Below, in pieces: positions 36,795 to 64,000 of a stretch of 64,000 nt of DNA. The position numbers and the translations under genes are program-made. The DNA is from Candidatus Udaeobacter sp. (GTDB lineage: Bacteria; Verrucomicrobiota; Verrucomicrobiia; Chthoniobacterales; UBA10450): the NCBI GenBank assembly GCA_035255865.1, contig DATEZD010000177.1:3299-67298 (forward strand), written 5' to 3'. Below the pieces are notes generated by a model, which searched no databases, was not told the origin of the DNA, and worked only from the letters and a program-made list of their open reading frames with translations. Position 1 is the first letter of the stretch; each line of letters starts with the position of its first letter.

Positions 36795-36823
36795 TTGACC
36801 GGTTTGGACAGTTCGGATAAAAG
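36795..36823 (+). promoter_or_regulatory. Candidate sigma70-type promoter for the eCIS operon (TTGACC-17 nt-TAAAAG)
   Basis: TTGACC at 36795-36800, a 17-nt spacer, then TAAAAG at 36818-36823. It sits in the 482-nt gap between trxA and the sheath gene. It is followed by the 12-nt palindrome cccccgcggggg at 36831-36842. This is sequence resemblance only. Confidence 0.25.
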
Positions 36824-37036
36824 TAAATTTCCCCCGCGGGGGATTGCGTCGCGGACCGAAGCGCTATGAGAAACATTAGACTGCATGACTAACACAAAAA
36901 ACATCATTTGGGTTGTGGTCCAGCGACCCTCCCCAGCAGGGGACGCGAGCTCACTGCCGATTTCTCCCGAACTGCTTTCACACAGATGTCGTCTGCCATT
37001 GAATTCCTGCCAAACTCAACCTTCACTCTCCTGATT

Positions 37037-39001
37037 ATGCCTGTTCAAACTACTTATCCTGGCGTTTACATTGAAGAAATTTCCAGTGGCGTCCATACGA
37101 TCAGCGGCGTCGCCACATCCATCGCGGCGTTTGTCGGTTACACGCAACGTGGACTGGATAATCGCGCGACGCAGATTTTCAGCTTCGCTGATTTCGAGCG
37201 CGCCTTCGGTGGTCTCGCCCCGGACAGCGAGGTGAGCTTTGCCGTACAGCAGTTTTATCAGAATGGCGGCACCACCGCGTATGTGGTGCGAGTGCCGCGG
37301 GACGGCGCCACGGTCGCGAAGGTTACGCTGTTGAATGGCGTTGGGGGCGGCGCGTCGCCTTCATTAGAGGTAAGCCTGCTCAGCACCGGCACTTGGTCGG
37401 ACAACGTCATCATCGACGTCGATTACGATGGCGTATCTGATGGCGACAGTTTCAACCTGACCATCACGGATCTGGCCACCGGGACAGTCGAGACCTTCGA
37501 TGACGTCACGATCGACAATACCAAGAACAATTTTGTCGAGTCAGTCGTAAACGATGAGGACAGCGGCTCAAAGTTGGTTTCGGTCGCGGCTACGCCCGCG
37601 AACGGTCGACCGGCTGCGACCGGTTTGGCCGGCGCCGACATTACACTTGCCAACATCAAGAACGACCAGACCTACACGATCCAGCTCGTACTCGACGACC
37701 CGATGATCTCGGTCGAGTTCCCCTTCATTGCGAAGGACGAGGCACTCCCGAAATCGATCGCTTCGGTCTGCCGGATGTTGGAGCGACAGGCAACCGCAGA
37801 ACTTGCTGGCAACATCCCGGGTGCGCGCGTACAATGCACCCCCACGACGAACGGTGCGGGGGTGCATGTGGCGGCGTTTGTTCCTAACGCCTACGACGCG
37901 CAGGTCAATTTCGCGGCCGGCACAACCAACGACGCAGACACTTTTCTCAACCTCACATCCGGCAACGGCGGCGCGAACGTCTCGCACTATTGGCCTGACA
38001 GCCAGCGCGGCGCCGACGCTCTCGCTCAGGCCGGCGCGACTCGCGGGTCCGACGGCACAGGACTGCCGCAAGCCGCAGCATTGATCGGCAACCCGGGAAG
38101 TTTCACTGGAATCTACGCCCTCGAAAAGATCGATCTCTTTAATATTCTTTGCATACCCGATGTGACGCGCGCGAAACCGGGTAATCCAAATCAGGCGGAC
38201 CTTTCGCTCGTCGACCAAAACGCGGTCTTCAGCGCGGCCATGACCTATTGCAAAAACGAGCGGCGAGCTTTTCTCCTGATCGATCCGCCGCCGGATGTGC
38301 GCGACGTCCCGACGGCCGTGGATTGGAAGACCGCCAGCCTAACGGTACATGATACGAATGGCGCGGCCTATTTCCCGCGTTTGAAGTTGCCCGACGCGAC
38401 AAACGATTTCCAACTCCGCACGTTTGCGCCTTGTGGCGTTGTGGCGGGGTTGTATTCACGCATCGACGCGAACCGCGGTGTATGGAAAGCGCCGGCGGGC
38501 GTTGAAGCGACTCTCAGCGGTGTTCAGGGGATGGTCTACAAACTTACTGACCTTGAAAACGGCGCACTCAATCCACTTGGCCTTAGTTGCCTTCGCACCT
38601 TCCCAATCTACGGAGCGATCGCCTGGGGCGCGCGCACTTTGGTCGGTGCTGATGATGAAGGCAGCGAGTGGAAATACGTCCCGGTGCGGCGGATGGCACT
38701 TTTTCTAGAGGAATCGCTCTACCGTGGCACCAAGTGGATTGTTTTTGAACCTAACGATGAGCCACTCTGGTCGCAGATTCGTTTGAACATTGGCGCGTTC
38801 ATGCACGATCTCTTTCGCCAGGGCGCTTTCCAAGGCAACACGCCGCAAAAAGCTTACTTCGTCAAGTGCGACGGCGAGACCACTACCCAAAGCGACATCG
38901 ATCACGGCATCGTGAACATTCTCGTCGGGTTCGCACCGCTCAAGCCAGCTGAGTTTGTCATCATTAAGATCCAGCAAATCGCCGGACAACTCGCCACGTA
39001 G
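37037..39001 (+). CDS. Contractile tail sheath protein (eCIS sheath)
   Basis: Start moved to ATG 37037. MPVQTTYPGVYIEEISSGVHTISGVATSIAAFVGYT at the N-terminus and ...WGARTLVGADDEGSEWKYVPVRRMALFLEESLYRGTKWIVFEPND at the C-terminus are hallmark phage tail sheath family segments. Confidence 0.92.
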   Translation: MPVQTTYPGVYIEEISSGVHTISGVATSIAAFVGYTQRGLDNRATQIFSFADFERAFGGLAPDSEVSFAVQQFYQNGGTTAYVVRVPRDGATVAKVTLLNGVGGGASPSLEVSLLSTGTWSDNVIIDVDYDGVSDGDSFNLTITDLATGTVETFDDVTIDNTKNNFVESVVNDEDSGSKLVSVAATPANGRPAATGLAGADITLANIKNDQTYTIQLVLDDPMISVEFPFIAKDEALPKSIASVCRMLERQATAELAGNIPGARVQCTPTTNGAGVHVAAFVPNAYDAQVNFAAGTTNDADTFLNLTSGNGGANVSHYWPDSQRGADALAQAGATRGSDGTGLPQAAALIGNPGSFTGIYALEKIDLFNILCIPDVTRAKPGNPNQADLSLVDQNAVFSAAMTYCKNERRAFLLIDPPPDVRDVPTAVDWKTASLTVHDTNGAAYFPRLKLPDATNDFQLRTFAPCGVVAGLYSRIDANRGVWKAPAGVEATLSGVQGMVYKLTDLENGALNPLGLSCLRTFPIYGAIAWGARTLVGADDEGSEWKYVPVRRMALFLEESLYRGTKWIVFEPNDEPLWSQIRLNIGAFMHDLFRQGAFQGNTPQKAYFVKCDGETTTQSDIDHGIVNILVGFAPLKPAEFVIIKIQQIAGQLAT

Positions 39002-39035
39002 CTTTCAATTCTCAACCCTCAACTCTCGATAACCC

Positions 39036-39563
39036 ATGGCTCAATTCACCGTTAATCCCAGCAGGTTCGATCCGTACAAGAATTTCAAGTTCCGTGTCAA
39101 GTGGGACGGCCGCTATGTCGCCGGCGTCAGCAAAGTCGGCGGCCTCAAGCGAACGACTGAAGTCGTCAAGCATCGCGAAGGCGGCGACCCCAGTAGCAGC
39201 CGCAAGTCTCCTGGCCGCACGGAATACGAAGCAATCACCCTCGAACGCGGCGTCACACACGACACCGAATTCGAGAAGTGGGCCAACAAAGTGTGGAACT
39301 TTGGCAGCGGCTTGGGCGCGGAGGTGTCGTTGAAGGATTTCCGCAAGGACCTTATCCTAGAGATGTACAACGAAGCGGGCCAGGTCGCGCTTGCTTACAA
39401 AATTTATCGTGCCTGGGTCAGCGAATATCAGGCATTGCCCGATCTGGACGGGAACGCCAATGCTGTCGCCATTCAGCACATCAAACTGGAAAACGAAGGC
39501 TGGGAACGCGACCAATCCGTGCCCGAGCCGAGCGAACCCACTTTCACGAACCCGGCAAATTGA
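39036..39563 (+). CDS. Tail tube protein (T4 gp19-like / eCIS inner tube)
   Basis: FKFRVKWDGRYVAGVSKVGGLKRTTEVVKHREGGDPSSSRKSPGRTEYEAITLERGV is the conserved pattern of the phage-tail-region tube family. The gene sits immediately after the sheath gene. Confidence 0.88.
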   Translation: MAQFTVNPSRFDPYKNFKFRVKWDGRYVAGVSKVGGLKRTTEVVKHREGGDPSSSRKSPGRTEYEAITLERGVTHDTEFEKWANKVWNFGSGLGAEVSLKDFRKDLILEMYNEAGQVALAYKIYRAWVSEYQALPDLDGNANAVAIQHIKLENEGWERDQSVPEPSEPTFTNPAN

Positions 39564-39574: not shown

Positions 39575-40264
39575 ATGCGCGCGCTCTCGGCCAAGGACCT
39601 GTTGAGCGTCTGGGAATCCGGGGCCAGCCAAGTTCCATTGCAACGCGCGCTGACAATGCTGGCGTTCGCTTGTCCGGAAGCTTCATCGGATTCGCTTGCC
39701 CGTCTGACCATCGGCCAGCGCGACGCGCGTTTGCTGGCGCTGCGGGAAATGACGTTTGGATTCGAAGTAACAGGCGTGACTGATTGTCCAGAGTGCGGAG
39801 AAAAGATCGAACTGAGCCTTAACTGCTCGCAGATTCGTTCAACGACAGAAGCTGAGCCGCCTGACGAGCTTGTTGTCCAGGCAAATGGTTTCGAGATGCG
39901 CTTTCGTTTACCGACCAGTGCCGATTTATTCGCCGTCAAAACCGAGGAGGAACTGCTGGAACGCTGCTTGTTGAGCCGCGTCGATGACCTGACCGAAGAT
40001 TTTGCCGCCACTGTTAGCGAAAAAATGGCGAGCGCAGATCCGATGGCGGAGATTCATCTCGTGCTGGATTGTCCGCGCTGCCAGCACAGGTGGGAGGCAC
40101 CGTTTGATATTGTCGCGTTTCTCTGGCGGGAGATCAGCGCCGCCGCCCGGCGGTTGTTACGCGAGGTTCACACGCTTGCGTCCGCTTACGGCTGGACGGA
40201 AACCGAAATCCTGGCGCTGAGTCCGGCGCGCCGGCGCATCTATCTGGAGATCGTAAACGGATGA
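39575..40264 (+). CDS. eCIS-associated hypothetical protein with two CxxC pairs (putative zinc ribbon)
   Basis: 229 aa with DCPECGEKIELSL and LDCPRCQHRWEAPFDI. It is coupled to its neighbours (4-nt overlap downstream). I recall no characterised homologue. Confidence 0.6.
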   Translation: MRALSAKDLLSVWESGASQVPLQRALTMLAFACPEASSDSLARLTIGQRDARLLALREMTFGFEVTGVTDCPECGEKIELSLNCSQIRSTTEAEPPDELVVQANGFEMRFRLPTSADLFAVKTEEELLERCLLSRVDDLTEDFAATVSEKMASADPMAEIHLVLDCPRCQHRWEAPFDIVAFLWREISAAARRLLREVHTLASAYGWTETEILALSPARRRIYLEIVNG

Positions 40265-40893
40265 GTGATTTTCTTTCCAATCTGATCGCGCGCAGTTTCA
40301 CCGATGCGCCGGCGATTCAACCGCGGGTGCCGTCGTTGTTCGAAGCATCAGCGGAAGAATTTTTCGATGAGTTGCCGTCGTTTCAAGGGGTAATTGCTAC
40401 GCCCGGACAGGTCGCTCCCACAAACGCGTCTGTGCCTGTCTCCAAATCGTCCGCGAGGGAAGAGACTGTCACAACGAGACCAATCGCGAATGTAGCTGCC
40501 ACGCGTACGGCAGAACGCATGCTAAGGCGGGACGCGCCCGCACACCAACCCGCGCCCATTAGTAAGTCGCGGGAGGGTAGCGCGCAGCCGAGTGGAGTGA
40601 GGAAACTCCAGGTTGAAACAAAGAGGATCAGCGTCGCGGAACATTCGTTCGACGATCGAAAACAAGATCGCGCCTTCGAGGCATCTTCCCCGGCGAGTGC
40701 ACTCCAGTCCCGGCGTCGAAAGAATTTGTTGCCGGCTGAACGAGAACCTTCAACGGCATCGCCGACAATTCGTGTCACCATCGGCCGCGTCGAAGTCCGT
40801 GCGATTCATCCCCCTGCGCCCACTCAGAAGGAGGCAACACCACAGCCGCCGAAGCTTTCGCTCGAAGAATATTTGAAAGGAAGCAAGCAATGA
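40261..40893 (+). CDS. eCIS-associated hypothetical protein (largely disordered, conserved ends)
   Basis: 210 aa. N-terminus MSDFLSNLIARSF, a low-complexity middle, and a C-terminus PTIRVTIGRVEVRAIHPP...LSLEEYLKG. It has 4-nt overlaps on both sides. Confidence 0.6.
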   Translation: MSDFLSNLIARSFTDAPAIQPRVPSLFEASAEEFFDELPSFQGVIATPGQVAPTNASVPVSKSSAREETVTTRPIANVAATRTAERMLRRDAPAHQPAPISKSREGSAQPSGVRKLQVETKRISVAEHSFDDRKQDRAFEASSPASALQSRRRKNLLPAEREPSTASPTIRVTIGRVEVRAIHPPAPTQKEATPQPPKLSLEEYLKGSKQ

Positions 40894-42161
40894 GCGACGC
40901 GCTGGCCATCGCTGCGGTCACCGGATTGCTGCGCGATCTGCTCACCGGCGTGATGACTCGCCCGGATCTAAATCTTTCCACTGTTGTTGGCTCAGCAGTG
41001 GACGTAAGCGCGCTGCCGCCCGACCTCATCAAGAGCGAGACGAAGGGCATCAATCGTCTCAACCTTTTTCTGTATCAAGTGCAGCCGAACCAGGGTTGGC
41101 GGAATGTAAACCATCCGTCACGCGACGGGCGCGGCGATCGCATCGCCAATCCACCGCTCGGACTCGATCTGTATTATTTGCTCACGGCGTACGCCGGCGC
41201 GGACATGCACGCGGAAGTCTTGCTGGGCTACGCGATGCAATACCTGCACGAATTAGGCGTGATGACCCGCGAGATGATTCGCAATCAATTCAACGCGTGG
41301 AGTGGGAGCGCTGACCCGTTGCTCAAGGCACTGCCGGGGTCCAGGCTCGCCGACCAAATCGAACAAATAAAGATTTCTCCTTATGCGTTGAATACCGAAG
41401 AGATGTCGAAACTCTGGACAGCAACGCAAGCGCACTATCGCCCCACGGCCGCGTATCATGTGTCGGTCGTATTAATTGAGAGTCAGTATCCAACGCGCGC
41501 GGCGCTGCCTGTGCTCCAGCGTGGCTTAGGTGATTTCGGTGTCGCCGTTCAACCCAACTTGGTGCCGCCATTACCGACTATCGAATCGCTGGAACCGCCG
41601 CAGCAGCAAACCGCCATTCGCATGGGCGAAACGCTGACCATCAATGGATTCAATCTTGCCGGCTCGCCACTCAACGTTGAATTCATTCACGCGCGCAGTC
41701 CAAATGCATTGACCTTGTCCGTTGCGACTGCAACGCCGACGCAGTGGACTGTCAACATCTCTCCGCTCAATCCCGATGATTGGGAAATTGGAATCTACCG
41801 CGTCGCAGGAGTTATCGGTTCGGGTACAACGCAGGTGACGACGAATGAATTGCCGCTCGCGCTGGCGCCGCGCATCGTCAGTATCAATGCGAGCAAGGCC
41901 GCGGGAGTGGTGACACTCACCGTTAAATGCAGTCCAAAAGTTTGGCAGGAGCAGGAGGTGTCGTTGATCGTCGGCGACCGCGCGATTGTCGCCGAGCCAA
42001 TTGCGAGCGCCAAAACCGACACACTTACTTTCAAGTCAAGCGATTTGCCGAGCGGCCCGCAGTGGGTGCGGCTGCGAGTGGAAGGAACCGACAGTATCTT
42101 GATTGATCGTACTAAGACGCCGCCGATTTTCGATGCGACTCAGCAGGTGACGATTCCATGA
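40890..42161 (+). CDS. DUF4255 (Afp16/Pvc16-like) tail terminator/cap protein with a C-terminal Ig-like extension
   Basis: The N-terminus MSDALAIAAVTGLLRDLL...LNLFLYQV...DLYYLLTAY is the DUF4255 signature. The C-terminal 200 aa or so look like two beta-sandwich repeats. Confidence 0.8.
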   Translation: MSDALAIAAVTGLLRDLLTGVMTRPDLNLSTVVGSAVDVSALPPDLIKSETKGINRLNLFLYQVQPNQGWRNVNHPSRDGRGDRIANPPLGLDLYYLLTAYAGADMHAEVLLGYAMQYLHELGVMTREMIRNQFNAWSGSADPLLKALPGSRLADQIEQIKISPYALNTEEMSKLWTATQAHYRPTAAYHVSVVLIESQYPTRAALPVLQRGLGDFGVAVQPNLVPPLPTIESLEPPQQQTAIRMGETLTINGFNLAGSPLNVEFIHARSPNALTLSVATATPTQWTVNISPLNPDDWEIGIYRVAGVIGSGTTQVTTNELPLALAPRIVSINASKAAGVVTLTVKCSPKVWQEQEVSLIVGDRAIVAEPIASAKTDTLTFKSSDLPSGPQWVRLRVEGTDSILIDRTKTPPIFDATQQVTIP

Positions 42162-44137
42162 ATGACGACACGCATTGGCTCGAAGCGAATCAACAATATT
42201 TGATGCATGCCATTGGACGAGTGCGCGCTCTGTTGGAAGGACGCGCCACCGTCCGACCAGCAACGGAAGGTAGGGCTGACAGTCCCCTGGCCGCAGAAGA
42301 CGGCGCGCATCCCGCGACTGCGGGACACCCTACCACGCCGCCACCAGCGCTCGACACGCTTTGTGCCGCCTTTGGCCTATCGCCTTTCGAGCGCGACGTG
42401 CTGCTGTTGTGCGCTGGCATCGAGTTGGATTCCAAGTTCGTGTCGTTGTGTGCAACCGCGCACGGCGACACGACGCGGGCATACCCAACGTTCAGTCTCG
42501 CGCTCGGGGCATTACCCGATCCGCACTGGAGCGCGCTTGCGCCGAATGCACCGCTACGCCGGTGGCGTCTCGTGGAAGTTAGCAACAGCAATGCATTGAC
42601 GACGAGTCCTCTCCGAATTGACGAACGCATACTGCATTATCTCACGGGTGTTTCGCATCTCGACGATCGGCTCGCCGGCTTGGTCGAGCCGGTAGGCATG
42701 GCAGGCGAATTGGTGCCTTCACAGCGCGTCCTTGTCGAGCGCGTGAAGCAATCCTGGTCGAACCGGAAAAAAATTTCCGAACTTCCTGTGGTGCAACTGT
42801 GCGGCGATGAATCCGTCACCAAACACGCGATTGCTGCGGCTGCATGCACGTCGCTCGGTTTGAATCTTCATCAGATTTTGGCGTCATCGCTGTCGCAGGA
42901 CCCGCGCGAGATGGACGCGCTGATTCGCTTGTGGCAGCGTGAGGCCGCATTAAGCACAAGCGCGCTATTAATTGACGTGCATGATATGGACGGCGCCGAT
43001 GCCGCTCACACAAGCGCCGTGAACCGGCTGATTGATCATCTCACTGCACCTTTACTTTTGAGCACACGCGTGCGTTGGAAAAATACGAGTCGCTTGATGT
43101 TGACTGTGGATGTTTCCAAGCCAACAGCGGACGAACAGCACGCGCTGTGGCAACATGTGCTCGGCGCTCACGCCGCTTCCTTGAATGGAAAACTGGATGC
43201 GCTGGTCTCGCAGTTTGACCTCAGCGCATCGAGCATTCGGGCCGCCGCGATGAACGGCCAATCGGACGAACGTTCCCCTGAGTGGGCGACGCTTTGGGAT
43301 TCCTGCCGGATGCAGACGCGTCCGCGATTGGACGATTTAGCCCAGCGCATTCAGCCGCTCGCAACTTGGGATGAATTGGTGCTACCCGATGCGCGGCGCG
43401 TCACCTTGCGAGAGATCGCTGCGCACGTGCGGCGGCGTTATCAGGTGTACGAGACATGGGGCTTCGCGAGCAAAAGCGCGCGGGGTCTGGGGATTAGCGC
43501 GCTGTTCGCCGGCGCAAGCGGCACGGGCAAGACGATGGCGACCGAAGTGCTCGCCAATGAATTGCGGCTCGATTTGTATCGTATCGATCTGAGCCAGGTC
43601 GTCAGCAAATACATCGGCGAGACTGAAAAGAATTTGCGGCGCGTGTTCGACGCGGCAGAGGAAGGCGGCGCGATTTTGTTGTTCGACGAAGCGGACGCGC
43701 TGTTCGGAAAACGCAGCGAGGTTAAGGACAGTCACGATCGGTACGCGAACATCGAGATCAGTTATCTGTTGCAGCGCATGGAGGAATATCGCGGACTGGC
43801 AATTCTCACCACGAACATGAAAGAGGCGCTCGACAGCGCGTTTCTCAGGCGGATCCGATTCATTGTGCATTTCCCGTTTCCCGATCTCGCTGCGCGGGAG
43901 GAAATCTGGCGACGCATTTTTCCCGACCAGACGCCGACTGAAGAATTGGCGATCGACAAACTGGCGCGTCTCAACGTCGCGGGCGGTAATATCCGGAACA
44001 TTGCTCTCAACGCAGCGTTCCTCGCCGCTGACGCGAACGAGCCGGTGCGAATGAACCACGTCTTGCGCGCCGCGCGCACCGAGTACGCGAAAATCGAGAA
44101 ACCGCTCACCGACGCGGAGATCGGAGGCTGGCAATGA
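42158..44137 (+). CDS. AAA+ ATPase (Afp15/Pvc15-like eCIS assembly/loading ATPase)
   Basis: C-terminal AAA module: LFAGASGTGKTMATEVLANEL (Walker A), AILLFDEADALFGKRS (Walker B) and LAILTTN (sensor 1). An N-terminal domain of about 380 aa has unknown fold. Confidence 0.9.
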   Translation: MNDDTHWLEANQQYLMHAIGRVRALLEGRATVRPATEGRADSPLAAEDGAHPATAGHPTTPPPALDTLCAAFGLSPFERDVLLLCAGIELDSKFVSLCATAHGDTTRAYPTFSLALGALPDPHWSALAPNAPLRRWRLVEVSNSNALTTSPLRIDERILHYLTGVSHLDDRLAGLVEPVGMAGELVPSQRVLVERVKQSWSNRKKISELPVVQLCGDESVTKHAIAAAACTSLGLNLHQILASSLSQDPREMDALIRLWQREAALSTSALLIDVHDMDGADAAHTSAVNRLIDHLTAPLLLSTRVRWKNTSRLMLTVDVSKPTADEQHALWQHVLGAHAASLNGKLDALVSQFDLSASSIRAAAMNGQSDERSPEWATLWDSCRMQTRPRLDDLAQRIQPLATWDELVLPDARRVTLREIAAHVRRRYQVYETWGFASKSARGLGISALFAGASGTGKTMATEVLANELRLDLYRIDLSQVVSKYIGETEKNLRRVFDAAEEGGAILLFDEADALFGKRSEVKDSHDRYANIEISYLLQRMEEYRGLAILTTNMKEALDSAFLRRIRFIVHFPFPDLAAREEIWRRIFPDQTPTEELAIDKLARLNVAGGNIRNIALNAAFLAADANEPVRMNHVLRAARTEYAKIEKPLTDAEIGGWQ

Positions 44138-44439
44138 ACATGACGAACTCAACGCCGAACGCCCAACGCCGAACGTCCAAAGCCCAACCTTCAGTTGAAC
44201 TGCATATCGGCGAACTTGTGCTGCATGATTTCGCGCCGGGTGATCGCCACGTGATCGGCGACGCTGTGGAGCGCGAATTGTCGCGGCTGCTGAGCCGGCA
44301 AGGCATTCCGAGTTCGCTGCGATCGAAAAACGCAACGGACGACATCAAAGGCGCGACCTTCAATGTGGCGCACAGCGCAAAGCCGCCTGTGATCGGTCGG
44401 CAAATCGCGCAAGCTGTTTATAAGGGATTCCGCGAATGA
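44134..44439 (+). CDS. Small eCIS-associated hypothetical protein preceding the payload genes
   Basis: 101 aa, with ATGA overlaps on both sides. The N-terminal 20 aa are encoded by a caacgccgaacgcccaacg low-complexity repeat. The core is VELHIGELVLHDFAPGDRHVIGDAVERELSRLL. Confidence 0.6.
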   Translation: MNMTNSTPNAQRRTSKAQPSVELHIGELVLHDFAPGDRHVIGDAVERELSRLLSRQGIPSSLRSKNATDDIKGATFNVAHSAKPPVIGRQIAQAVYKGFRE

Positions 44440-46028
44440 ACACGCGCGTTTTACCGCAAGCGAAACAGTCGACGGCGTCGGCCCCGCCCATGCGCAGCAA
44501 GCTATTGCAGCGCAAATGTGCCTGCGGCGGCACGCCGGGACCGACCGGCGAATGTGAGGAGTGCCACAAGAAGCGGCTGCAACGGAAAGTCGGAAATCCG
44601 AAATCCGAAATGCAAAGTGACTCGTGGGTACCTCCCATCGTGGATGAAGCCCTGCGTTCGCCTGGCCAGCCGCTCGACGCCGTTACACGCTCATTCATGG
44701 AACCACGCTTCGGCCACGATTTTGGAAACGTGCGCGTGCATACGCATGCGCGCGCTGCCGCTTCGGCGAAGGCGATCAATGCGCAGGCCTATGCCGTTGG
44801 CCACAACGTTGTCTTCGGCGAAAATAAATATGCACCGACTACCCAAGCCGGACGCGAACTGCTGGCGCACGAACTCACACACGTCGTGCAACAAGGCGAT
44901 GCTAGTGCTGGACTGGTGCAAAACCATCGCCGTTCAGGGCCGGCAATAAGCCAACCGGGAGCCCGCGCCGAGCAGGAAGCTGACCGTGGTGCTGAGGCGG
45001 TGGCGACTGGCGGAAGCTTCGCGCCGTCCGTCAAAGCAGCTCCCGGAGCGACGATCCACCGCGCGGATGAGGAGTGGAATAAAGCCTACGGCAAACACAA
45101 AAGCTTTCTTCAGAAACCCTTCGATGAGTTCAAAGCTGGGCTTGGCGAGATCAAATCCACGACCGAGGGCGGGCTGACGGAAAACAAGGGGCGGCCGCTC
45201 TCGGAACGAAAGAAAGACGCTCCGACCGGCACGCCCGCCGCGCCTGAAATCAGCTTCGATGTGCTCAAAGAGATTTATTCCGGACTCAAGGCCGACGTCA
45301 CCGCCGACCCGGCGAAGGAGAAGAAGGCCAAGAATTACCTGGAGCACCTCAACAAGGCATTCAAGATCATGAAGATTGATACGGTTGAGGCGCAGGCGGT
45401 TTATCTGGCGCACGCCTTTATCGAATCCGATCAGTTCCGCCAGTTCACCGAAACGCAAGGGTCAATCGACAAGGGCGCGCAAAAGTGGATGGATGATCCG
45501 ACAAAGGTGCAGATCAATACATCGGACCTCAAGAAGCGATATGCGCTGGGAGGTTCGGTCAATCCGACCGGAGGCTTCGAGTTCATCGGGCGCGGCCCCG
45601 TTCAGGTCACGCATAAGGCCGAGTACGTCGAAGTGATCGCCATGCTCGAAAAGGCCGCTGATCAATATAAGAAAGATGCGGACGCCGGCGATGCGAAGGC
45701 GAAAGAGTATGTGGAGCTGACGCGCAAGGCGGCCAAGGACATCAAGGCCGACCCCCGGAAGGCCGCCGACCCTGAGTACACATTCCTGGTCTCGGCAGCC
45801 TTTATGAAGAAGCGAGGCGCGGACGTGTCGGCGGCGACGGTGAAGACCGGGACGCAATGGACCGGGGCCGATGCCGCCAGCGGTTGGGTCGCGGGCGGGA
45901 AACAGAAAGCGGGTTCGCCGCAGGCCCAGGCGCTCATCGATAAGAGCAATGCCTACGACAAGATTTATCCTGTGCTTCTGCGCGAGGCGAACAAGAAGAA
46001 GCCCGCCGCACAAACAGCGAAGCCGTAA
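44436..46028 (+). CDS. Putative eCIS payload 1: Cys-rich leader + DUF4157 domain + C-terminal GH19 (chitinase/lysozyme)-like domain
   Basis: - Leader: LLQRKCACGGTPGPTGECEECHKKRLQRK.
- DUF4157 core: PLDAVTRSFMEPRFGHDFGNVRVH...AYAVGHNVVFG...LLAHELTHVVQQ.
- C-terminus: AHAFIESDQFRQFTETQG and FEFIGRGPVQVTHKAEY resemble the GH19 catalytic-Glu and GRGPIQLT motifs. Confidence 0.8.
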   Translation: MNTRVLPQAKQSTASAPPMRSKLLQRKCACGGTPGPTGECEECHKKRLQRKVGNPKSEMQSDSWVPPIVDEALRSPGQPLDAVTRSFMEPRFGHDFGNVRVHTHARAAASAKAINAQAYAVGHNVVFGENKYAPTTQAGRELLAHELTHVVQQGDASAGLVQNHRRSGPAISQPGARAEQEADRGAEAVATGGSFAPSVKAAPGATIHRADEEWNKAYGKHKSFLQKPFDEFKAGLGEIKSTTEGGLTENKGRPLSERKKDAPTGTPAAPEISFDVLKEIYSGLKADVTADPAKEKKAKNYLEHLNKAFKIMKIDTVEAQAVYLAHAFIESDQFRQFTETQGSIDKGAQKWMDDPTKVQINTSDLKKRYALGGSVNPTGGFEFIGRGPVQVTHKAEYVEVIAMLEKAADQYKKDADAGDAKAKEYVELTRKAAKDIKADPRKAADPEYTFLVSAAFMKKRGADVSAATVKTGTQWTGADAASGWVAGGKQKAGSPQAQALIDKSNAYDKIYPVLLREANKKKPAAQTAKP

Positions 46029-54769: not shown

Positions 54770-57357
54770 TTTACTTCTGCTGCACCGAGCTGCGTCGCGA
54801 CGCGGTGAAGCAATCCGCCAATCTAAACGGAATTGATTTCCTCGAGGTGCTGGACGATCCAGCGCTGCCGAACGACCAACGCCAGCGCAAACTCTTCGTG
54901 CATTTTTTGAAGGCACTCGCGCCGAACGCGCTGAAAAAAGAAAATATCCGCATCGATGGTGGCGAACGCATCACGAACATTGGCGTCGTGAGCATCAGCG
55001 CGAGCGCGGAAGTTCTCACCGTAGAAGTGGACAAGCCGGGCGATTTTTCGCTCTACACACTGCGCCTGCTTAAAGACGCGTCATCCACAGATCCTGACGA
55101 ACCGCCGCCTGATGGTTTCGATCCGTTGCTGTCGGCTGTGGAATTTTCATTCAAGGTCGAATGCCCGAACGATTTTGACTGCAAGCCCACGCGTGAGTGT
55201 CCGCCCGAACAGCGCACTGAACCGGACATCAATTATCTGGCAAAGGATTACAGCAGCTTTCGCCAACTAATGCTCGACCGGATGTCGGCGCTGATGCCAC
55301 AGTGGCGAGAGCGGAACGCGGCGGATCTCGGGATCGCGCTGGTCGAGTTATTGGCGTACGTCGGGGACCATCTATCCTATCAACAGGATGCCATTGGCAC
55401 GGAAGCGTATCTCGGCACTGCCCGGCGGCGTGTCTCCATCCGCCGGCACGCGCGGCTCGTGGACTATCGGATGCACGACGGCTGCAACGCACGCGCGTGG
55501 GTGCAGGTGAGCGTGAACGCTGACTCGGTTTTCGTTCCGCAGCACACGCAACTGTTCACCCAGCTGAACGACCAACAAGTACGCATCCCGACCGAGCCGC
55601 AAGCGTACAATCGCGCGCTGGCGCAGCATCCAACTGTGTTCGAGACGATGCACGACGCGACGCTGTTCGCTGCGCACAACCAGATCGATTTTTACACGTG
55701 GGGCGAACACGAATGCTGTCTGCCCAGAGGCGTTACGCGCGCAACGCTGCGCGACATCGATGATCCAAAAGATCCGGACAAACGCCTGCGTCTGTGCGTC
55801 GGGGACGTGCTAATTTTCGAAGAACGCAAGGGGCCCAAGACCGGTAACCCTGCTGACGCCGACCCCGCGCGTCGGCACGCGGTGCGATTAACCAGAGTCA
55901 AGCCCACGACGAAATGCGAAATTGTTGAAGGCATTGAGCAGCGCACGCCCGACGCGCAAGGGCTGACAGATCCGCTCACGAACGAATTGATTGTCGAAAT
56001 CGAGTGGGCAAACGAAGACGCGCTGCCGTTTCCACTGTGTATTTCATCCAAGACAGATAAGGAGCACGGCGACCAAGAAATCGAGCAGGTGAGCGTCGCG
56101 CTCGGCAATATTGTGCTGGCGGATCATGGTATGACGATTGCGAATGAAGCGCTCGGCGACGTGCCGCCGCCGGTTCTTTTTTTTGCGCCCGATGTGAGCG
56201 CGAATCGCTGTGCCGACAATCCGCTCGTGCCAATTCCACCGCGTTATCGCCCCGCGTTGGACAAGTATCCGCTCACACAAATTGGTCGTGTGATAAAAAA
56301 GCAAACCGTCGGTGGACGCGAAGAAACTGTGCACGTGCCGTTCGATCCCGACGCACCCGCGGAGAACGCGTTTCGTTGGCACATGGCTGATACGCTGCCG
56401 TGGATTCAATTAACGAGTGTTTATGAAGAGAACCCGGAGGATTGGACGCCACAGAAAGATTTACTGAACAGCGATGGCGAAAAGACCGACTTCGTTGTCG
56501 AGGTCGAGAACGACGGAACAGCACACGTGCGTTTTGGCGACAATGAACATGGTCGGCGTCCCGATTCCGGCACGACGTTCACCGCGGCGTATCGCGTCGG
56601 CAACGGCGTCGCTGGAAATGTCGGTGCGGATTCGCTGGTTCACATCGTCAGCGATGATTCGCGCATTACATCCATGCGCAATCCCATCGCCGCGCACGGT
56701 GGTGTCGAACCCGAGAGCATTGAAGACGTGCGCCAGCGCGCGCCATACGCCTTCCGCACCCAGGAGCGCGCGGTGACCGCGAACGATTACGCGACGATGG
56801 CGCAGCGCGATGTGTTCGTGCAGCGCGCGGCGGGCACCTTCCGCTGGACCGGCAGTTGGCGCACGATGTTTGTGACAATAGATCGCTTCGGCGGGGCAAA
56901 AGTGGACGACGCGTTCAAGCAGGAGATCGAAGATGAACTCGAACCGTATCGCATGGCGGGGCAGGACCTTGACGTGAATGGTCCGATTTACGTCTCTCTC
57001 GAAATCGAGATGCAGGTCTGCGTTAAGCCCGATTATTTCCGCAGCGCGGTGAAACAGGCGCTGCTGGAAATCTTTAGCAATCGCATTTTGCCCGACGGGC
57101 GCCTCGGCGTTTTTCATCCCGACAATTTTACTTTCGGACAGACTGTGTTTCTCAGTCCGCTCTACGCGGCGGCGCAAGCGGTTGAGGGTGTCGAGTCGGT
57201 GGTAATTGCCAAATTTCAGAGGCAGGGCACGGACAGCGATGTCGCACTGAACGCGGAGAAATTGGAACTCGCGCGGTTGGAAATCGCGCGCTGCGACAAC
57301 GACCCGAACTTTCCAGAGCGTGGCGTGTTTCGTTTAACGCTGGATGGAGGCAAATAG
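54766..57357 (+). CDS. Baseplate J-like (gp6/Afp11-like) protein
   Basis: Start trimmed to MIYFCCTELRRDAV. The 863-aa protein contains VTANDYATMAQRDVFVQRAAGTFRWTGSWRTMFVTI, a baseplate-J domain pattern. Confidence 0.8.
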   Translation: MIYFCCTELRRDAVKQSANLNGIDFLEVLDDPALPNDQRQRKLFVHFLKALAPNALKKENIRIDGGERITNIGVVSISASAEVLTVEVDKPGDFSLYTLRLLKDASSTDPDEPPPDGFDPLLSAVEFSFKVECPNDFDCKPTRECPPEQRTEPDINYLAKDYSSFRQLMLDRMSALMPQWRERNAADLGIALVELLAYVGDHLSYQQDAIGTEAYLGTARRRVSIRRHARLVDYRMHDGCNARAWVQVSVNADSVFVPQHTQLFTQLNDQQVRIPTEPQAYNRALAQHPTVFETMHDATLFAAHNQIDFYTWGEHECCLPRGVTRATLRDIDDPKDPDKRLRLCVGDVLIFEERKGPKTGNPADADPARRHAVRLTRVKPTTKCEIVEGIEQRTPDAQGLTDPLTNELIVEIEWANEDALPFPLCISSKTDKEHGDQEIEQVSVALGNIVLADHGMTIANEALGDVPPPVLFFAPDVSANRCADNPLVPIPPRYRPALDKYPLTQIGRVIKKQTVGGREETVHVPFDPDAPAENAFRWHMADTLPWIQLTSVYEENPEDWTPQKDLLNSDGEKTDFVVEVENDGTAHVRFGDNEHGRRPDSGTTFTAAYRVGNGVAGNVGADSLVHIVSDDSRITSMRNPIAAHGGVEPESIEDVRQRAPYAFRTQERAVTANDYATMAQRDVFVQRAAGTFRWTGSWRTMFVTIDRFGGAKVDDAFKQEIEDELEPYRMAGQDLDVNGPIYVSLEIEMQVCVKPDYFRSAVKQALLEIFSNRILPDGRLGVFHPDNFTFGQTVFLSPLYAAAQAVEGVESVVIAKFQRQGTDSDVALNAEKLELARLEIARCDNDPNFPERGVFRLTLDGGK

Positions 57358-60106
57358 CCCACGAATGGACACGAATGATTTAACAAAATTGAACGACTGC
57401 GGGTGCTGCGAAGGGCTGATGGGTGAAACACCTGCTGTGATTGATAATCGCCCGGGCTTGACTGCTATTGCCTACCGCGTCGGCACGCACTCGCGTTTCA
57501 AAGCGTCCATGCTCGCGCGGTTGTCTGATCCTGACCTCAGTCAGCTGAAAGCATTGAAGACGCGCGAGGATGACGATTTTTCCATCGCGCTACTCGATGC
57601 GTGGGCATCGGTTGCGGACGTGCTAACTTTTTATCAAGAGCGCATCGCGAACGAAAATTATCTTCGCACCGCGACTGAACGTAATTCAATCCTGCAGCTG
57701 GCGCGCTTGATCGGTTACAAATTGCGTCCCGGTGTCGCGGCGAGCGTGTATCTCGCCTTCACCGTCGAAGACACGTCTCAAGCCACGAATCCGGCGCCCG
57801 TCAATCCCGCGAACCCGCCGCCCGTGTGGAGCGCGGTTGGGACGGCAGTGATCGATATCGGTACGAAGGTGCAAAGCATCCCGGGTCCCAACGAGCAGGC
57901 GCAAACGTTCGAGACGATGGAAAAAATCACGGGGCACGCGGCGTGGAATGCGATGAAAGCACGCCAGACGGGGCCGCAGCCGCTCGCAACAGACATGGAC
58001 AAAATCTTGTTCGAAGGCACGGCGACGAAATTAAACAAGGGCGACGCGCTGCTCATCGTCGTGCCCAATTCATCCGGCAGCACAGATCAGGCGCTGCGCC
58101 GCGTGGCAAGTGTTGAGGGGGATGACAAAAAGCAGCAGACGACCGTGGGACTGGTCACAGCGACCAAACCGAAATTTGCCATCATGCTGCCGATCTATTT
58201 GGAAGGCGGGTTCACCCTCGGCGCGCTGCCCTTTAACGACAACACGGTTGACAATCTGATTTTGAACAAAGCGTGGAATGGGTCCGACCTCGATGCATTT
58301 GCCAAAATACAGGGTTTCTCCATTGACGAGTTGTATGCCAACATCGGCGCCAAATTCAAGAAGCCGACGCCGACACCAGAAAACACCGGCGCGTTTGCAA
58401 TGCGGAAGCGCGCCGCGCTTTTTGGCTACAACGCGCCCGATTGGAATGCAATGGCGTGGCTGACTCGCACGAATTACGGCGACATCTACGATTACACGAC
58501 GCAATTGTGGAAGTTAGATGATTGGCCCGTTTCGAAATTCACCGGCGATACGGCCCATACGCTGTCGCTCGACCAAGTTTACAAAGAAATCAAAGCCGGG
58601 GATTGGGTCGTCGTGGTGCATCCAACCAAGGGCACAGTCATCGCGCCGGTGAAGGACGTCACGGAAACCGCGGCATCGTTTTTTGCCATTAGCGGACAGG
58701 TCACGCAGATCACCTTCGACTCGAGCGTGGATGTCCCGCTCACTACCATGACCGAGCTGCGCCGGACGAGCGTCTATATTGTTCCCGAACAACTGACGCC
58801 TGCCGAGCTCACCGATTCCTCCGACGTCGAAAGCGACTCGATTCAACTGGACGGACCTTACGCGGGACTCTCTGCCGGACAGACCGTCATTGTCAGCGGC
58901 ACCCGCGCCGATCTCGAAGGCGTGGCGGCCGCCGAAGCTGCGGTAATTGCCGATGTCACACTCGCGGGCGGATTTACAACGCTCACGTTGGTGGGCGACC
59001 TTACGAATCCGTACGTCCGCGACACGGTCAGCGTCAACGCAAATGTTGCGCTGGCGACGAATGGTGAAACGACCAGCGAAATTTTAGGGAACGGCGACGC
59101 ATCGCAAGCCTATCAGCAGTTTCAATTGAAACAGTCGCCGCTCACCTATGTCAGTTCGGCGTCGTCCAGTGGCTCAGACTCGACGCTTCAGATTTTCGTG
59201 AATGATCTGCATTGGCACGAGGTGCCGAGCTTGCTCGACGCTGAACCCCGCGACCGCGTTTTTGTCACGCGCGCCAGCGATGACGGCAAGACGACACTTG
59301 AATTTGGCGATGGCAGGATGGGCGCGCGGGTGCCAACGGGACAAGAGAATGTCCGCGCAGTTTATCGTAAAGGCATCGGCACGGGCGGCAACGTCAAGGG
59401 TGGACGATTGAGCTTGCTATTGACGCGGCCGCTCGGCGTCAAAGCGGTCATTAATCCGATTGCCGCCAGCGGCGGCGCAGACTCCGAAAAGTTGGAGGAC
59501 GCGCGATCGAATGCGCCCCTCACTGTGCTGACTTTAGACCGCGTTGTTTCCCTGAGGGATTACGAAGATTTCGCGAGCGGGTTCGCGGGGATTGCCAAAG
59601 CATTGGCGACGTGGACGTGGGATGGGCAAACGCGCGGCGTCTTCGTGACCGTGGCGGGACCGAGCGGCGCGAAGATTCCCGATGGAAGTAAGACGCTGAC
59701 GAACCTCATCGCGGCAATGCAGTCTGCCGGTGATCCGCATGTGCCGTTGCGCGTACAAACATACAGGTCCGGTTTCTTTCGCCTTTCGGCACTCGTTGTT
59801 ATTAATCCCGATTATCAGCAGGACAAAGTGATTGCGGCGGTGACTGATGCGCTGCGCACGGGATTTTCGTTCGACGCACGCGCGTTCGGACAAGGCGTCG
59901 CGCTGAGCCAGGTTGTGGCAGGGATGCAAGCCGTGCCCGGCGTTGACGCGGTGGATGTGACTAAAATGTATCGTGTGGGCGACGCTGCCGACTGGAACGC
60001 GCGTCTCCCTGCGGCCATGCCGCAAGCGGGGGCAGAAGGAACAGTGCAAGCGGCTGAGCTACTGATTCTCGATCCAGGTCCAATTGATTTGGGAGTAATG
60101 TCGTGA
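57344..60106 (+). CDS. Second large baseplate protein with a J-like domain (putative baseplate assembly protein, Afp12-like)
   Basis: LNDCGCCEG...RPGLTAIAYRVGTHSRFKASMLARLS is typical of the putative-baseplate-assembly family. It has a later VSLRDYEDFASGFAGIAKA J-like segment. An alternative start is ATG 57365. Confidence 0.75.
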   Translation: MEANSPRMDTNDLTKLNDCGCCEGLMGETPAVIDNRPGLTAIAYRVGTHSRFKASMLARLSDPDLSQLKALKTREDDDFSIALLDAWASVADVLTFYQERIANENYLRTATERNSILQLARLIGYKLRPGVAASVYLAFTVEDTSQATNPAPVNPANPPPVWSAVGTAVIDIGTKVQSIPGPNEQAQTFETMEKITGHAAWNAMKARQTGPQPLATDMDKILFEGTATKLNKGDALLIVVPNSSGSTDQALRRVASVEGDDKKQQTTVGLVTATKPKFAIMLPIYLEGGFTLGALPFNDNTVDNLILNKAWNGSDLDAFAKIQGFSIDELYANIGAKFKKPTPTPENTGAFAMRKRAALFGYNAPDWNAMAWLTRTNYGDIYDYTTQLWKLDDWPVSKFTGDTAHTLSLDQVYKEIKAGDWVVVVHPTKGTVIAPVKDVTETAASFFAISGQVTQITFDSSVDVPLTTMTELRRTSVYIVPEQLTPAELTDSSDVESDSIQLDGPYAGLSAGQTVIVSGTRADLEGVAAAEAAVIADVTLAGGFTTLTLVGDLTNPYVRDTVSVNANVALATNGETTSEILGNGDASQAYQQFQLKQSPLTYVSSASSSGSDSTLQIFVNDLHWHEVPSLLDAEPRDRVFVTRASDDGKTTLEFGDGRMGARVPTGQENVRAVYRKGIGTGGNVKGGRLSLLLTRPLGVKAVINPIAASGGADSEKLEDARSNAPLTVLTLDRVVSLRDYEDFASGFAGIAKALATWTWDGQTRGVFVTVAGPSGAKIPDGSKTLTNLIAAMQSAGDPHVPLRVQTYRSGFFRLSALVVINPDYQQDKVIAAVTDALRTGFSFDARAFGQGVALSQVVAGMQAVPGVDAVDVTKMYRVGDAADWNARLPAAMPQAGAEGTVQAAELLILDPGPIDLGVMS

Positions 60107-62262: not shown

Positions 62263-62289
62263 CCAAGACAAACCACAGAGGACCGACCA

Positions 62290-64000
62290 ATGAAAGGTGA
62301 TTTCAGTCGCGACACATTCGATTCAAAAAAACATTACAGCCGGGTTTTGATGCAGCAGGGGCGCGTCCAGACAGACGCAGATTGGAACGAGCAGCAGGCG
62401 ATAACGACATATCGCGTTGAGACGGAAACGCGCGATGTGATTGGCGCCTGCGGCGCGCCGTTGAACGACGCGGGATTTGGCATCGCGAACGACGGCAAGA
62501 CGCTGACCATCAGCAAAGGGCGCTTTTACGCTGATGGGATTTTGTGCGAGAACGACCAGGCGGATTTGGATTATCTCAAGCAACCAGATTTTCCAAACGC
62601 GCCCGTTCCGCTCGATCTGCTCAAGAAAGCCAAAGCGCCATTCGGCATTGTCTATCTCGACGTATGGCAGCGGCATCTCAGCGCGCTGGACGACGACTAC
62701 ATTCGCGAAAAGGCATTGGGCGGGCCGGATACCGCGACGCGTCTGAAAACAATTTGGCAGGTGCGCGTGCTGCCGGTGCAGGGCCCCGACGAGAAAGAAT
62801 GCGCACGACTCGAAAAGGAGCGCCAAAGTCTCCAGGCGAAAATTGACAAGCTGCAAGGCGGGATTAACAAAACTGCAAAGAGCAAAAGCAAAGCCGCGCA
62901 AAGCAAAAATCTCAAGGCCGGCGCGGACGTCGACAAGCTACGCGAAGAATTGACGAAGCTCGAAGCCCGAATCGAAGCGGTCTGCGGCGCCGTAGCATGT
63001 GCGACGCCGTTTCCCGAGTGGAACGCACTAGTCACGCCGAGCAGCGGCACATTGAATGCGCACACAGCCACACCGGCATCCGACGACGTTTGTCTCATTC
63101 CACCCAGCGCGGGCTACCAGCGTTTGGAAAACCAGCTTTATCGCGTTGAAGTTCATGACGACAGCGCGTCGAACAAACCGACGTTCAAATGGTCGCGCGA
63201 TAATGGCGTCGTCGTCACCTCCATCACAAACATCAGCGGACAGGACGTCAGCGTTCATGATGTGGGCCCCGACGATGTATTGGGTTTTGCGAACGGGCAG
63301 TGGGTCGAAGTGAGTGACGACAGCTTGGAACTCAATGGACTGCCGGGCGAATTGATCCAAATCCAAAATGTCGACGCAGCGACAAAAACCATCACGCTGC
63401 AATCCGCGCCGACGCTCACGTTCAAGGAAGAACTGCATACGAAGTTGCGCCGATGGGACGGCACGGCCGCGTTAACGACGAGCACATGGCTTCCGCTTGA
63501 AGGCGGTATCGAGGTGCAGTTCTCGAACGGCACCTACAAGACGGGCGATTATTGGCTGATTCCTGCGCGCACGGCGACGGGCGAAATCGAGTGGCCCCCG
63601 TTTGAGACGCCGAACACGAATCCCATCGCGCAGCCGCCGCGCGGCATTCGACATCATTACTGCCGCCTCGCGCTACTGGCATTCGATGGAAAAAAATTGA
63701 CGGTGCAACAAGACTGCCGCGATGTTTTTTATCCGCTAGCGGCCAGCGCGCTGCACGTAACGAAAACAAGTTGGCAGAATGACGATCTGCTGCCGACCAA
63801 AGCGCTGCAGAAGGGGTTGCAGATTTGGTTCGACGTGGTGCCCGATAAATTGTCGCTCGTCGGCGGTGGTCAGCCGCCTGCAAGCCCCACCGTGATCGTC
63901 AGCGCCGAAACCCCGCTTGAATCCGGCGCCGCTGCGCCCGATTTGACTTTTATTCTCGACACGAAAATCATGCTCAACTCGGATTCGATCGTTTTGAACA
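62290..64000 (+). CDS. DUF6519-like protein (partial, continues beyond the window), possible distal/target-recognition component
   Basis: Absent from the ORF track because there is no stop in the window. I translated from ATG 62290 and the frame stays open to 64000: MKGDFSRDTFDSKKHYSRVLMQQGRVQTDADWNEQQ... The family name was recalled from memory. Confidence 0.65.
   Translation, partial: MKGDFSRDTFDSKKHYSRVLMQQGRVQTDADWNEQQAITTYRVETETRDVIGACGAPLNDAGFGIANDGKTLTISKGRFYADGILCENDQADLDYLKQPDFPNAPVPLDLLKKAKAPFGIVYLDVWQRHLSALDDDYIREKALGGPDTATRLKTIWQVRVLPVQGPDEKECARLEKERQSLQAKIDKLQGGINKTAKSKSKAAQSKNLKAGADVDKLREELTKLEARIEAVCGAVACATPFPEWNALVTPSSGTLNAHTATPASDDVCLIPPSAGYQRLENQLYRVEVHDDSASNKPTFKWSRDNGVVVTSITNISGQDVSVHDVGPDDVLGFANGQWVEVSDDSLELNGLPGELIQIQNVDAATKTITLQSAPTLTFKEELHTKLRRWDGTAALTTSTWLPLEGGIEVQFSNGTYKTGDYWLIPARTATGEIEWPPFETPNTNPIAQPPRGIRHHYCRLALLAFDGKKLTVQQDCRDVFYPLAASALHVTKTSWQNDDLLPTKALQKGLQIWFDVVPDKLSLVGGGQPPASPTVIVSAETPLESGAAAPDLTFILDTKIMLNSDSIVLN

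Follow-up and report, generated by a model that had tools for sequence, protein, structure and literature searches.

A contractile injection system of the eCIS superfamily with four DUF4157 cargos in soil Candidatus Udaeobacter

Genes of the operon

The 64,000-nt stretch of DNA analyzed here (contig DATEZD010000177.1; hereafter, the window) carries, from position 37037 to its end, an operon of 21 genes, co-directional on the + strand and nearly free of intergenic space. Judged by its gene content, this operon is a stand-alone contractile injection system (CIS) of the superfamily of extracellular contractile injection systems (eCIS), located on the chromosome of a soil Candidatus Udaeobacter. 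An exact-sequence look-up matched the window proteins to HJW38665 to HJW38686 of a Candidatus Udaeobacter sp. metagenome-assembled genome (MAG), on a 71,223-bp NCBI contig, and the sheath shares 85% identity with its counterpart in Ca. Udaeobacter AEW3 and 83% with the one in a Chthoniobacterales MAG. The host is thus a member of Verrucomicrobiota, in line with the Verrucomicrobia-like host suggested by an earlier note on this DNA. Candidatus Udaeobacter is uncultured, has a reduced genome and is among the most abundant soil bacteria; the genus has been reported to tolerate antibiotics. The machine takes up about 1% of this reduced genome.

We scanned all 21 operon genes and the flanking open reading frames (ORFs) of at least 150 aa across the 64 kb with profiles (Table 1). 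The sheath, tube, cap, ATPase, four cargos, spike, gp25, Baseplate_J and DUF6519 proteins expected by the earlier note, which had also counted about 21 co-directional genes, were all matched. Its CIS_tube and DUF4280 calls stayed just under the gathering scores, and its LysM call was weak. The predicted proteins make up every part of a headless contractile tail, in which the two Baseplate J-like proteins are gp6-like wedge proteins, together with the eCIS-specific AAA+ ATPase. All eight core components (Chen et al. 2019, PMC6899500) appear to be present, the LysM-type Afp7 tentatively so, from weak matches (PHROG46 'baseplate hub' 1.3e-4, NCBIfam LysM 0.0022, Phage_tail_X 0.027 and Pfam LysM 0.2).

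Several proteins needed closer comparison with relatives. The two genes that follow the tube gene had been listed as unknowns; the first matches the T4_baseplate family and is present in all relatives, with no match among solved structures by sequence search, and the second indeed has no family match. From its position alone, the second protein may have a tape-measure-like or assembly role. The predicted gpD-like hub has no Pfam match, and a single-sequence search of solved structures was empty, but a profile of 13 orthologs matched the solved VgrG 9rce_F (3.9e-9) and the AlgoCIS chain 7aef_q (1.7e-3), supporting a hub. By contrast, the label 'tail-protein-I' for the 719-aa protein found little support, as TIGR02242 was the sole match, far below the cut-off. 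This protein gave no PDB match, by single sequence or by profile; its 60 orthologs in the relatives' loci always lie between the second Baseplate J-like gene (J2) and the DUF6519 gene. Orthologs of the tube initiator are 51-84% identical and hold the same position in all relatives.

The AAA+ ATPase is presumably the unfoldase that loads the cargos, by analogy with PVC and AlgoCIS, in which this role was described (PMC11495950; bioRxiv 10.64898/2026.05.27.728243). A match to the 'IteA anti-phage ATPase' reached 99 bits against a cut-off of 510 and was rejected as generic AAA similarity.

The last gene encodes a DUF6519 protein, as had been expected, and runs past position 64000. DUF6519 is the eCIS baseplate-anchor domain of fibre genes (PMC12923769). 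Its orthologs have ~660 to 1430 aa; they are conserved at the N-terminus, while the C-terminus varies strongly in length. Judging from the ortholog at locus L013, which is 82% identical and has 802 aa, ~230 aa are missing in the window.

Most genes are joined by four-nucleotide overlaps. Of eleven junctions listed as ATGA, nine are so, and GTGA is found at the other two, 49206 and 60103. At 47764, ATGA is present, but the stop codon that it overlaps belongs to a 46-aa remnant ORF; the preceding cargo gene stops at 47622. In front of the LysM-like gene, a 71-bp tandem duplication creates a 24-aa mini-ORF at 51966-52040 (MTDPMQARLQSRRGHRPRLQLHIP). Its start and stop both lie in ATGA overlaps with the neighboring genes, so that translational coupling may be kept.

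The structural genes are all homologous to myophage tail genes, their order is collinear with that of phage tail modules, and phage sheaths are detectable homologs of the operon sheath. These features would also suit a prophage tail module that has degraded, or an R-type tailocin, which would kill by depolarising membranes with no protein delivery. We regard either as very improbable. Phage tails and pyocins have neither the Pvc16_N cap nor the Afp15-type AAA+ ATPase nor DUF4157 proteins, all of which are markers of eCIS-type systems (PMC6899500, PMC8213781). The closest phage sheath has only 34% identity, and a DUF6519 ortholog found no match in the phage collection. The ORFs scanned in the 64 kb included no integrase, head, portal, terminase or lysis genes, and the window has no tRNA gene; the flanks consist of housekeeping genes, and the whole operon is kept intact across phyla.

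Similarly, a canonical type VI secretion system (T6SS) has sheath, tube, gp25, VgrG-like and PAAR-like parts in common with the operon, and the fold of one cargo domain resembles the T6SS effector TseP. Nevertheless, the tube is of the gp19 type and not Hcp, a Pvc16 cap is present, and TssJ/L/M, TssK, TssF/G, TssA and ClpV-type proteins had no match among the ORFs scanned, which makes a canonical T6SS hardly conceivable. Prophage remnant, tailocin and canonical T6SS are thus effectively excluded, and the earlier view of a stand-alone injection system that lacks capsid, portal, terminase, integrase and T6SS membrane complex holds across the whole window.

Table 1. Features of the operon and its upstream region (window coordinates, with the match or observation behind each call)
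Feature	Coordinates	Strand	Evidence
Upstream non-coding region	36795..37036	+	promoter-like TTGACC-17 nt-TAAAAG 36795-36823; GC hairpin CCCCCGCGGGGG 36831-36842; then ~200-nt leader
Sheath, Cis2 / Afp2-4 equivalent, 654 aa	37037..39001	+	Phage_sheath_1C 1.6e-10
Inner tube protein, Cis1 / Afp1	39036..39563	+	Phage_T4_gp19 1.6e-45; TIGR02241 1.9e-42
Zinc-ribbon protein, T4 baseplate-hub assembly family, accessory	39575..40264	+	PF12322 7.7e-13 (above cut-off); PHROG150 'baseplate hub' 9e-11
Low-complexity protein, 210 aa	40261..40893	+	no family match; C-terminal part alone conserved in relatives
Tail terminator / cap, Cis16 / Afp16	40890..42161	+	Pvc16_N (= DUF4255) 2.3e-45
AAA+ ATPase, Cis15 / Afp15	42158..44137	+	AAA 4.6e-27 and WHD 1.2e-22
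Small protein after ATPase, 101 aa	44134..44439	+	no family match; orthologs hold same position in relatives
Cargo 1: Cys-motif N-terminal region, DUF4157, predicted GH19-type domain aa 211-530	44436..46028	+	eCIS_core 4.8e-31
Cargo 2: DUF4157 and C-terminal domain without known family	46069..47622	+	eCIS_core 1.6e-31
Remnant ORF, 46 aa, duplicated 5' end of tube-initiator gene	47624..47764	+	copy of start of the gene at 51319
Cargo 3: Cys-motif N-terminal region, insertion-split DUF4157, alpha-helical HExxH/Cys-rich domain	47764..49209	+	eCIS_core 1.1e-25
Cargo 4: N-terminal region long and with additional motif copies, DUF4157, two-module C-terminal region	49206..51314	+	eCIS_core 1.2e-31
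Tube initiator / tube-baseplate adaptor, Cis5/7-like	51319..51969	+	CIS_tube 3.3e-5, just below gathering score
Tandem duplication (71 bp) of start of LysM-like gene	51960..52070	+	direct repeat D6, 85% over 40 nt
LysM-like small baseplate-hub protein, Afp7 / gpX-like	52037..52396	+	position and size fit
gp27 / VgrG-N-like hub, first half of split Cis8 / Afp8	52389..53519	+	ortholog profile
gp5 / V spike OB-fold, second half of split Cis8	53516..54028	+	Phage_base_V 2.9e-22
PAAR-like spike tip, Cis10 / Afp10	54087..54407	+	DUF4280 2.1e-5, 25.5 bits vs cut-off 26.3
gp25-like baseplate wedge, Cis9	54404..54769	+	GPW_gp25 1.5e-19
Baseplate J-like copy 1, Cis11a	54766..57357	+	Baseplate_J 3.3e-9; TIGR02243 1.8e-94; solved homolog Streptomyces 9gtp_1K 5.2e-15
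Baseplate J-like copy 2, Cis11b	57344..60106	+	Baseplate_J 3.5e-7; TIGR02243 3.6e-79
Peripheral baseplate protein, Cis12 position, 719 aa	60103..62262	+	TIGR02242 0.0017, sub-threshold
DUF6519 (eBAP5) fibre/crown-like protein, cut by window end	62290..64000	+	DUF6519 1e-69

Four DUF4157 cargos and their array

All four payload candidates of the earlier note match eCIS_core (= DUF4157), at 1e-25 to 1e-31, and HEL[TA]H is intact in each of them. They follow one plan: a shared N-terminal region, then DUF4157, then C-terminal domains that are mutually unrelated. The motif LLQRKCACGGTPGPTGECEEC is found in the N-terminal regions of cargos 1, 3 and 4. A second motif, NQPGDxFEQEADR, is shared by cargos 2 and 4, and cargo 1 has it behind DUF4157. 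The N-terminal cysteine motif LLQRKCAC-GGTPGPTGEC-E[EA]C (CxC...CxxC) is common to three of the four, at 44501-44577, 47835-47911 and 49376-49452, with 75-82% conservation of the DNA. This cysteine motif is a candidate for a system-specific loading signal or a zinc knuckle.

In cargo 1, a C-terminal profile of 32 sequences matched the GH19 endolysins 8p8e, 9ms6 and 4ok7 at ~2e-6. The AlphaFold2 (AF2) model of the domain has a pLDDT of 94.8, and its top Foldseek matches are GH19 endolysins and TseP, with a probability of 0.99-1.00; for the endolysins, the probability is 1.00 and the TM-score (target) 0.5-0.69. Within the domain, E120 and E129, nine residues apart, are invariant in the 32 sequences. 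Orthologs have been named 'predicted chitinase' by JGI. The domain is therefore predicted to be a GH19-type lysozyme/chitinase with two catalytic glutamates.

Public gene calls start cargo 2 at ATG 46198 (474 aa), with TTG 46069 and GTG 46087 as alternatives. The conserved motif NQPGDHFEQEADR (NQPGDxFEQEADR), which cargo 4 has as well, is encoded upstream of this ATG, so that translation probably begins at TTG 46069 or at GTG 46087. The family of its C-terminal domain comprises 47 clusters, 43 of which have DUF4157 annotated, the other four being short and mostly partial. Among 27 aligned members that were scanned, the domain itself had zero Pfam matches, and 25 carry DUF4157.

The C-terminal domain of cargo 3 (48364-49209, aa 201-481) is represented by 49 clusters among 1.84 billion proteins and is fused to DUF4157 in 29 of 35 members. 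HExxH and six cysteines are nearly invariant. The domain was modelled confidently by AF2 (pLDDT 85.9); the model found no fold neighbor in PDB or BFVD, and a profile search of solved structures was empty. Hence, this may be an undescribed effector domain.

For the C-terminal region of cargo 4 (50241-51314, aa 346-702), a search of 5.8 billion proteins yielded only 8 clusters, which are all close relatives, and a 70% identical ortholog of cargo 4 is present in Ca. Udaeobacter AEW3 (L010). The two modules (345-495, and 496-702 with HEQFH) each occur separately in other DUF4157 proteins. Assignment of the region to DUF922 (0.029) was too weak for use, and profile comparison found it unrelated to the cargo 3 domain. 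An HExxH motif is thus present in two of the three effector domains without an assigned activity, those of cargos 3 and 4.

The array bears a trace of rearrangement between cargos 2 and 3. In the 46-aa remnant ORF, 15 of the first 19 residues are identical to the N-terminus of the tube-initiator protein, whose gene lies 3.7 kb downstream; at the DNA level, 47623-47684 (~60 nt) matches 51318-51379. A like remnant follows the cargo 2 ortholog in locus L094 (11016-11168), where it is succeeded by an insert encoding a two-TM (transmembrane) protein and then by the intact tube-initiator gene. The remnant looks like a scar left when a cassette was inserted through recombination at the tube-initiator start.

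The orthologs of the individual cargos are scattered. That of cargo 1 is found in the Acidobacteriota locus L096 and in L098, that of cargo 2 in L093 and L094, and that of cargo 4 in L010, while cargo 3 has no ortholog in the same set of relatives. The number of DUF4157 genes per locus varies from one to at least four, and the cargo block occupies the position of the tape measure in phage tail modules. Taken together, the scar and the mosaic spread of orthologs suggest that cargo cassettes are gained and swapped by recombination at the conserved tube-initiator start, an exchange through which the array would evolve.

Gene order and known relatives

The gene order (sheath, tube, zinc-ribbon, small, cap, ATPase, small, DUF4157 genes, tube initiator, LysM-like, hub, spike, PAAR-like tip, gp25, J, J) is identical in three other Verrucomicrobiota, a Steroidobacteraceae MAG, an alphaproteobacterial MAG, Pyrinomonadaceae (Acidobacteriota), several unassigned soil contigs and the cultured Novosphingobium resinovorum SA1. 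Relatives with this order span Verrucomicrobiota, Acidobacteriota, Alphaproteobacteria and Gammaproteobacteria, and cap, ATPase and cargo genes lie in mid-operon in every relative examined. The earlier note had contrasted the order with that of Afp/PVC, where the genes for cap, ATPase and toxins stand at the 3' end. The difference is real, but the mid-operon placement is a property of the lineage and does not set this locus apart. For lineage II, gene orders specific to the subtypes were reported in 2019 (Chen et al., PMC6899500), and a mid-cluster DUF4157 'interspacing region' has been described for clade IIa (PMC11566945).

The end of the operon was inferred from relatives; in exact-protein look-ups, the 719-aa protein and Baseplate J-like copy 1 had no entry in the index, and gp25 was present only on contigs shorter than 5 kb. 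In loci L014 and L033, which are 57-58% relatives, the DUF6519 gene is followed by LacI/iol (inositol) genes or by an opposite-strand M50 peptidase gene. From tube initiator to DUF6519, the genes keep one order in all of 80 metagenome loci, and in most of them nothing CIS-related lies 3' of the DUF6519 gene. Placement of cargos at the 3' end also occurs in a minority of related loci.

According to Chen et al. (PMC6899500), subtypes IIa and IIc have two afp11 genes, afp8 is split in IIa-IIc, and afp10 is present except in IIb. The operon has Baseplate_J in two copies, hub and spike as separate ORFs, and a DUF4280 protein, and no match to Afp6- or Afp14-like proteins was found among the operon proteins, which likewise agrees with IIa/IIc. 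It thus fits lineage II with an IIa/IIc-type organization, as judged by gene content rather than phylogeny and with IIa and IIc unseparated.

The earlier note had stated that no eCIS from a Verrucomicrobia host had been characterized. It remains true that no particle has been isolated from the phylum; however, Geller et al. 2021 catalogued an eCIS operon of Ca. Udaeobacter copiosus (Ga0111076_1231, 528-32166, eCIStem), displayed it in a figure, and listed a further operon in Rubritalea marina (PMC8213781). Among the papers searched, this was the sole one that links Udaeobacter with contractile systems. EAT13 of the Ca. U. copiosus operon, a predicted actin cross-linker flanked by DUF4157 genes, was tested in yeast and kills it (PMC8213781). 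According to its published description, the Ca. U. copiosus operon resembles ours in genus, in having DUF4157 cargo genes inside the operon and in length (~31.6 kb there, ~27.7 kb here); the absence of a reported afp13 homolog is a further likeness. Unlike that operon, ours has no EAT13-like domain that we could find, and instead carries the predicted GH19-type hydrolase and three domains without assignment.

The CIS of Halogeometricum borinquense, of clade IIa, is similar in its two Cis11, two structural blocks, mid-cluster DUF4157 toxins and lack of Cis6/Cis14 (PMC11566945). It differs in being bound to the cytoplasmic membrane and acting by contact, with a 6-TM anchor gene and toxin-immunity pairs, neither of which was seen here.

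AlgoCIS of Algoriphagus machipongonensis has cargos, Cgo1 and Cgo2, with the same arrangement of N-terminal region, DUF4157 and variable C-terminal domain, and with N-termini that are similar within the system. In AlgoCIS, ATPase-dependent loading of the tube lumen needs the N-terminal region, which is disordered, while DUF4157 is dispensable for it (PMC8894135; bioRxiv 10.64898/2026.05.27.728243). AlgoCIS (clade Ib) is, however, a proven extracellular particle with tail fibres and the Alg14 tape measure, and has two cargos, against four here. Afp and PVC (clade Ia) have the eight core components in common with the operon, but differ in their 3'-end cap, ATPase and toxins, unsplit Afp8, single Afp11, Afp14 tape measure, Afp13 fibres and effectors without DUF4157.

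The best solved homologs of both sheath and Baseplate_J are those of Streptomyces CIS (8bky, 9gtp), which we take to belong to subtype IId. In subtype IId, there is one Afp11, and Afp8 is unsplit (PMC6899500). In S. davawensis, the gene for the DUF4157 effector Tme lies directly upstream of the baseplate genes, which is the tape-measure position of phages (PMC11126660). Unlike Tme, which has tape-measure homology and transmembrane helices, the four cargos described here have no transmembrane helices.

A syntenic system is also present on plasmid pSA1 of N. resinovorum SA1 (L095, NZ_CP017076.1, ~1,405,651-1,427,636), with a sheath that is 53% identical over its full length. Its cargo region of ~8.8 kb is a stretch without annotation in the PLSDB copy. 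This system could serve as an experimental model for the lineage.

Mode of action and genomic setting

We favor, with moderate confidence, a released, extracellular, cell-wall-targeting injection particle as the product of the operon. The baseplate would assemble around the spike, tube and sheath would polymerize, and the Pvc16-like protein would cap them. The ATPase would recognize the shared N-terminal regions and thread the four cargos into the tube lumen. The particle would then be released, probably by lysis of the producer, and bind its target via the variable C-terminus of the DUF6519 protein, whereupon contraction of the sheath would drive the tube to deliver the cargos. Assembly, ATPase-driven loading and contraction-driven delivery are all taken over from homologous systems. 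As a predicted GH19-type muramidase/chitinase, cargo 1 would act on the cell wall; by this predicted activity, the target is most likely bacterial peptidoglycan, and possibly fungal chitin.

That this system is extracellular had been assumed in the earlier note, and sequence by itself does not decide between release and action from inside the cell. The same machine might stay unreleased, either anchored in the membrane and firing into neighbors on contact, as in haloarchaea, or in the cytoplasm and firing into its own envelope, as in Streptomyces; in the latter variant, the GH19 cargo would lyse the producer. We hold an unreleased machine to be possible, if doubtful. In favor of it, the sheath is nearer to those of Streptomyces CIS (8bky/9gtp, 1.6e-72) and 9ezm (3.2e-69) than to the solved sheaths of the extracellular Pvc, Afp and AlgoCIS (1e-47 or weaker; Afp/PVC 1e-40 to 1e-47), and the best solved Baseplate_J homolog is the Streptomyces chain 9gtp_1K. 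We take 9ezm to be the haloarchaeal clade IIa sheath. The CISs of model Streptomyces species are intracellularly localized, and that of S. davawensis promotes extracellular DNA (eDNA) release and spore formation (PMC11126660). The haloarchaeal system, which is the one characterized clade IIa system and has mid-cluster DUF4157 toxins as here, is membrane-bound and T6SS-like (PMC11566945), so that the two lineage II systems characterized so far are intracellular or membrane-bound and act from inside the cell (PMC11566945, PMC11126660).

On the other side, no transmembrane segment was found in any of the 21 operon proteins, whereas in haloarchaea, a 6-TM anchor gene beside the cluster is correlated with the system. 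The sole membrane protein nearby (141 aa, 35795-36220) was tried as a CIS anchor and rejected, as it had no matches in the relatives' loci, including the upstream flanks analyzed. No immunity-like small genes lie between the cargos, in contrast to the toxin-immunity pairs of the contact-dependent haloarchaeal system. Furthermore, the conserved N-terminus and length-variable C-terminus of the DUF6519 fibre anchor form the usual pattern of receptor-binding fibres. These three features were counted for release.

Besides the Streptomyces-like sheath and baseplate and the habits of characterized lineage II systems, several points weigh against the released particle. As the earlier note had remarked, no lysis cassette was found in the operon. 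The missing ~230 aa of the DUF6519 protein, presumably the receptor-binding part, lie beyond the window, as do ~7 kb of the contig on the 3' side. In five loci, genes do follow the DUF6519 gene, encoding DUF4157 proteins (L015, L042, L066 and L088) or an AAA ATPase (L045), and further cargo genes past 64.7 kb in our operon are accordingly conceivable. The structural calls for LysM, CIS_tube, DUF4280 and the Cis12-position protein are weak, and the lineage placement has the limits given above.

A broader proposal would make the machine the main weapon by which the host lyses its neighbors, with a wall hydrolase and three further effectors, the HExxH/Cys-rich domain of cargo 3 as a toxin fold without a solved or viral neighbor, and an arsenal renewed by cassette exchange across phyla, with recombination at the tube-initiator start as the route. 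We think it unlikely that all of these parts hold jointly.

This kind of operon, the order of its genes and its occurrence in the genus had all been recorded before, and the picture of such systems is unchanged. New here are the predicted GH19-type lysozyme domain of cargo 1, the HExxH/Cys-rich domain of cargo 3 and the mosaic cargo array with its putative tube-initiator scar. Interest lies mainly in these features and in the ecological weight of the host: a complete and apparently intact system with a predicted cell-wall-degrading cargo offers a concrete hypothesis for how an abundant soil genus interacts with its neighbors. In addition, four cargos with one N-terminal motif set provide a compact natural example of the loading-sequence scheme used in eCIS engineering, and the tube-initiator remnant hints at how cargo arrays are rebuilt.

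The operon start had been placed near 36795; the sheath gene, however, starts at ATG 37037, and its N-terminus, MPVQTTYP, is common to all relatives. A consensus promoter scan called no promoter upstream of the sheath, and the region 36795-37036 is not conserved in relatives, so that the promoter-like and hairpin elements of Table 1 are tentative. An Rfam scan gave zero RNA-family matches. The 5' neighbors of the operon are ftsK, a helix-turn-helix (HTH) protein gene, rimO, the small membrane protein gene and trxA; the trxA/rimO flank named in the earlier note was confirmed. Farther 5' lie genes for SMC, 2-oxoacid dehydrogenase subunits and permeases, queC and other housekeeping genes, which fill the upstream 36 kb. 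This chromosomal flank also encodes a class A beta-lactamase-family protein (22302-23246), an NlpC/P60 peptidase (16997-17932) and an AmiA-like amidase (901-1788), all unrelated to the operon.

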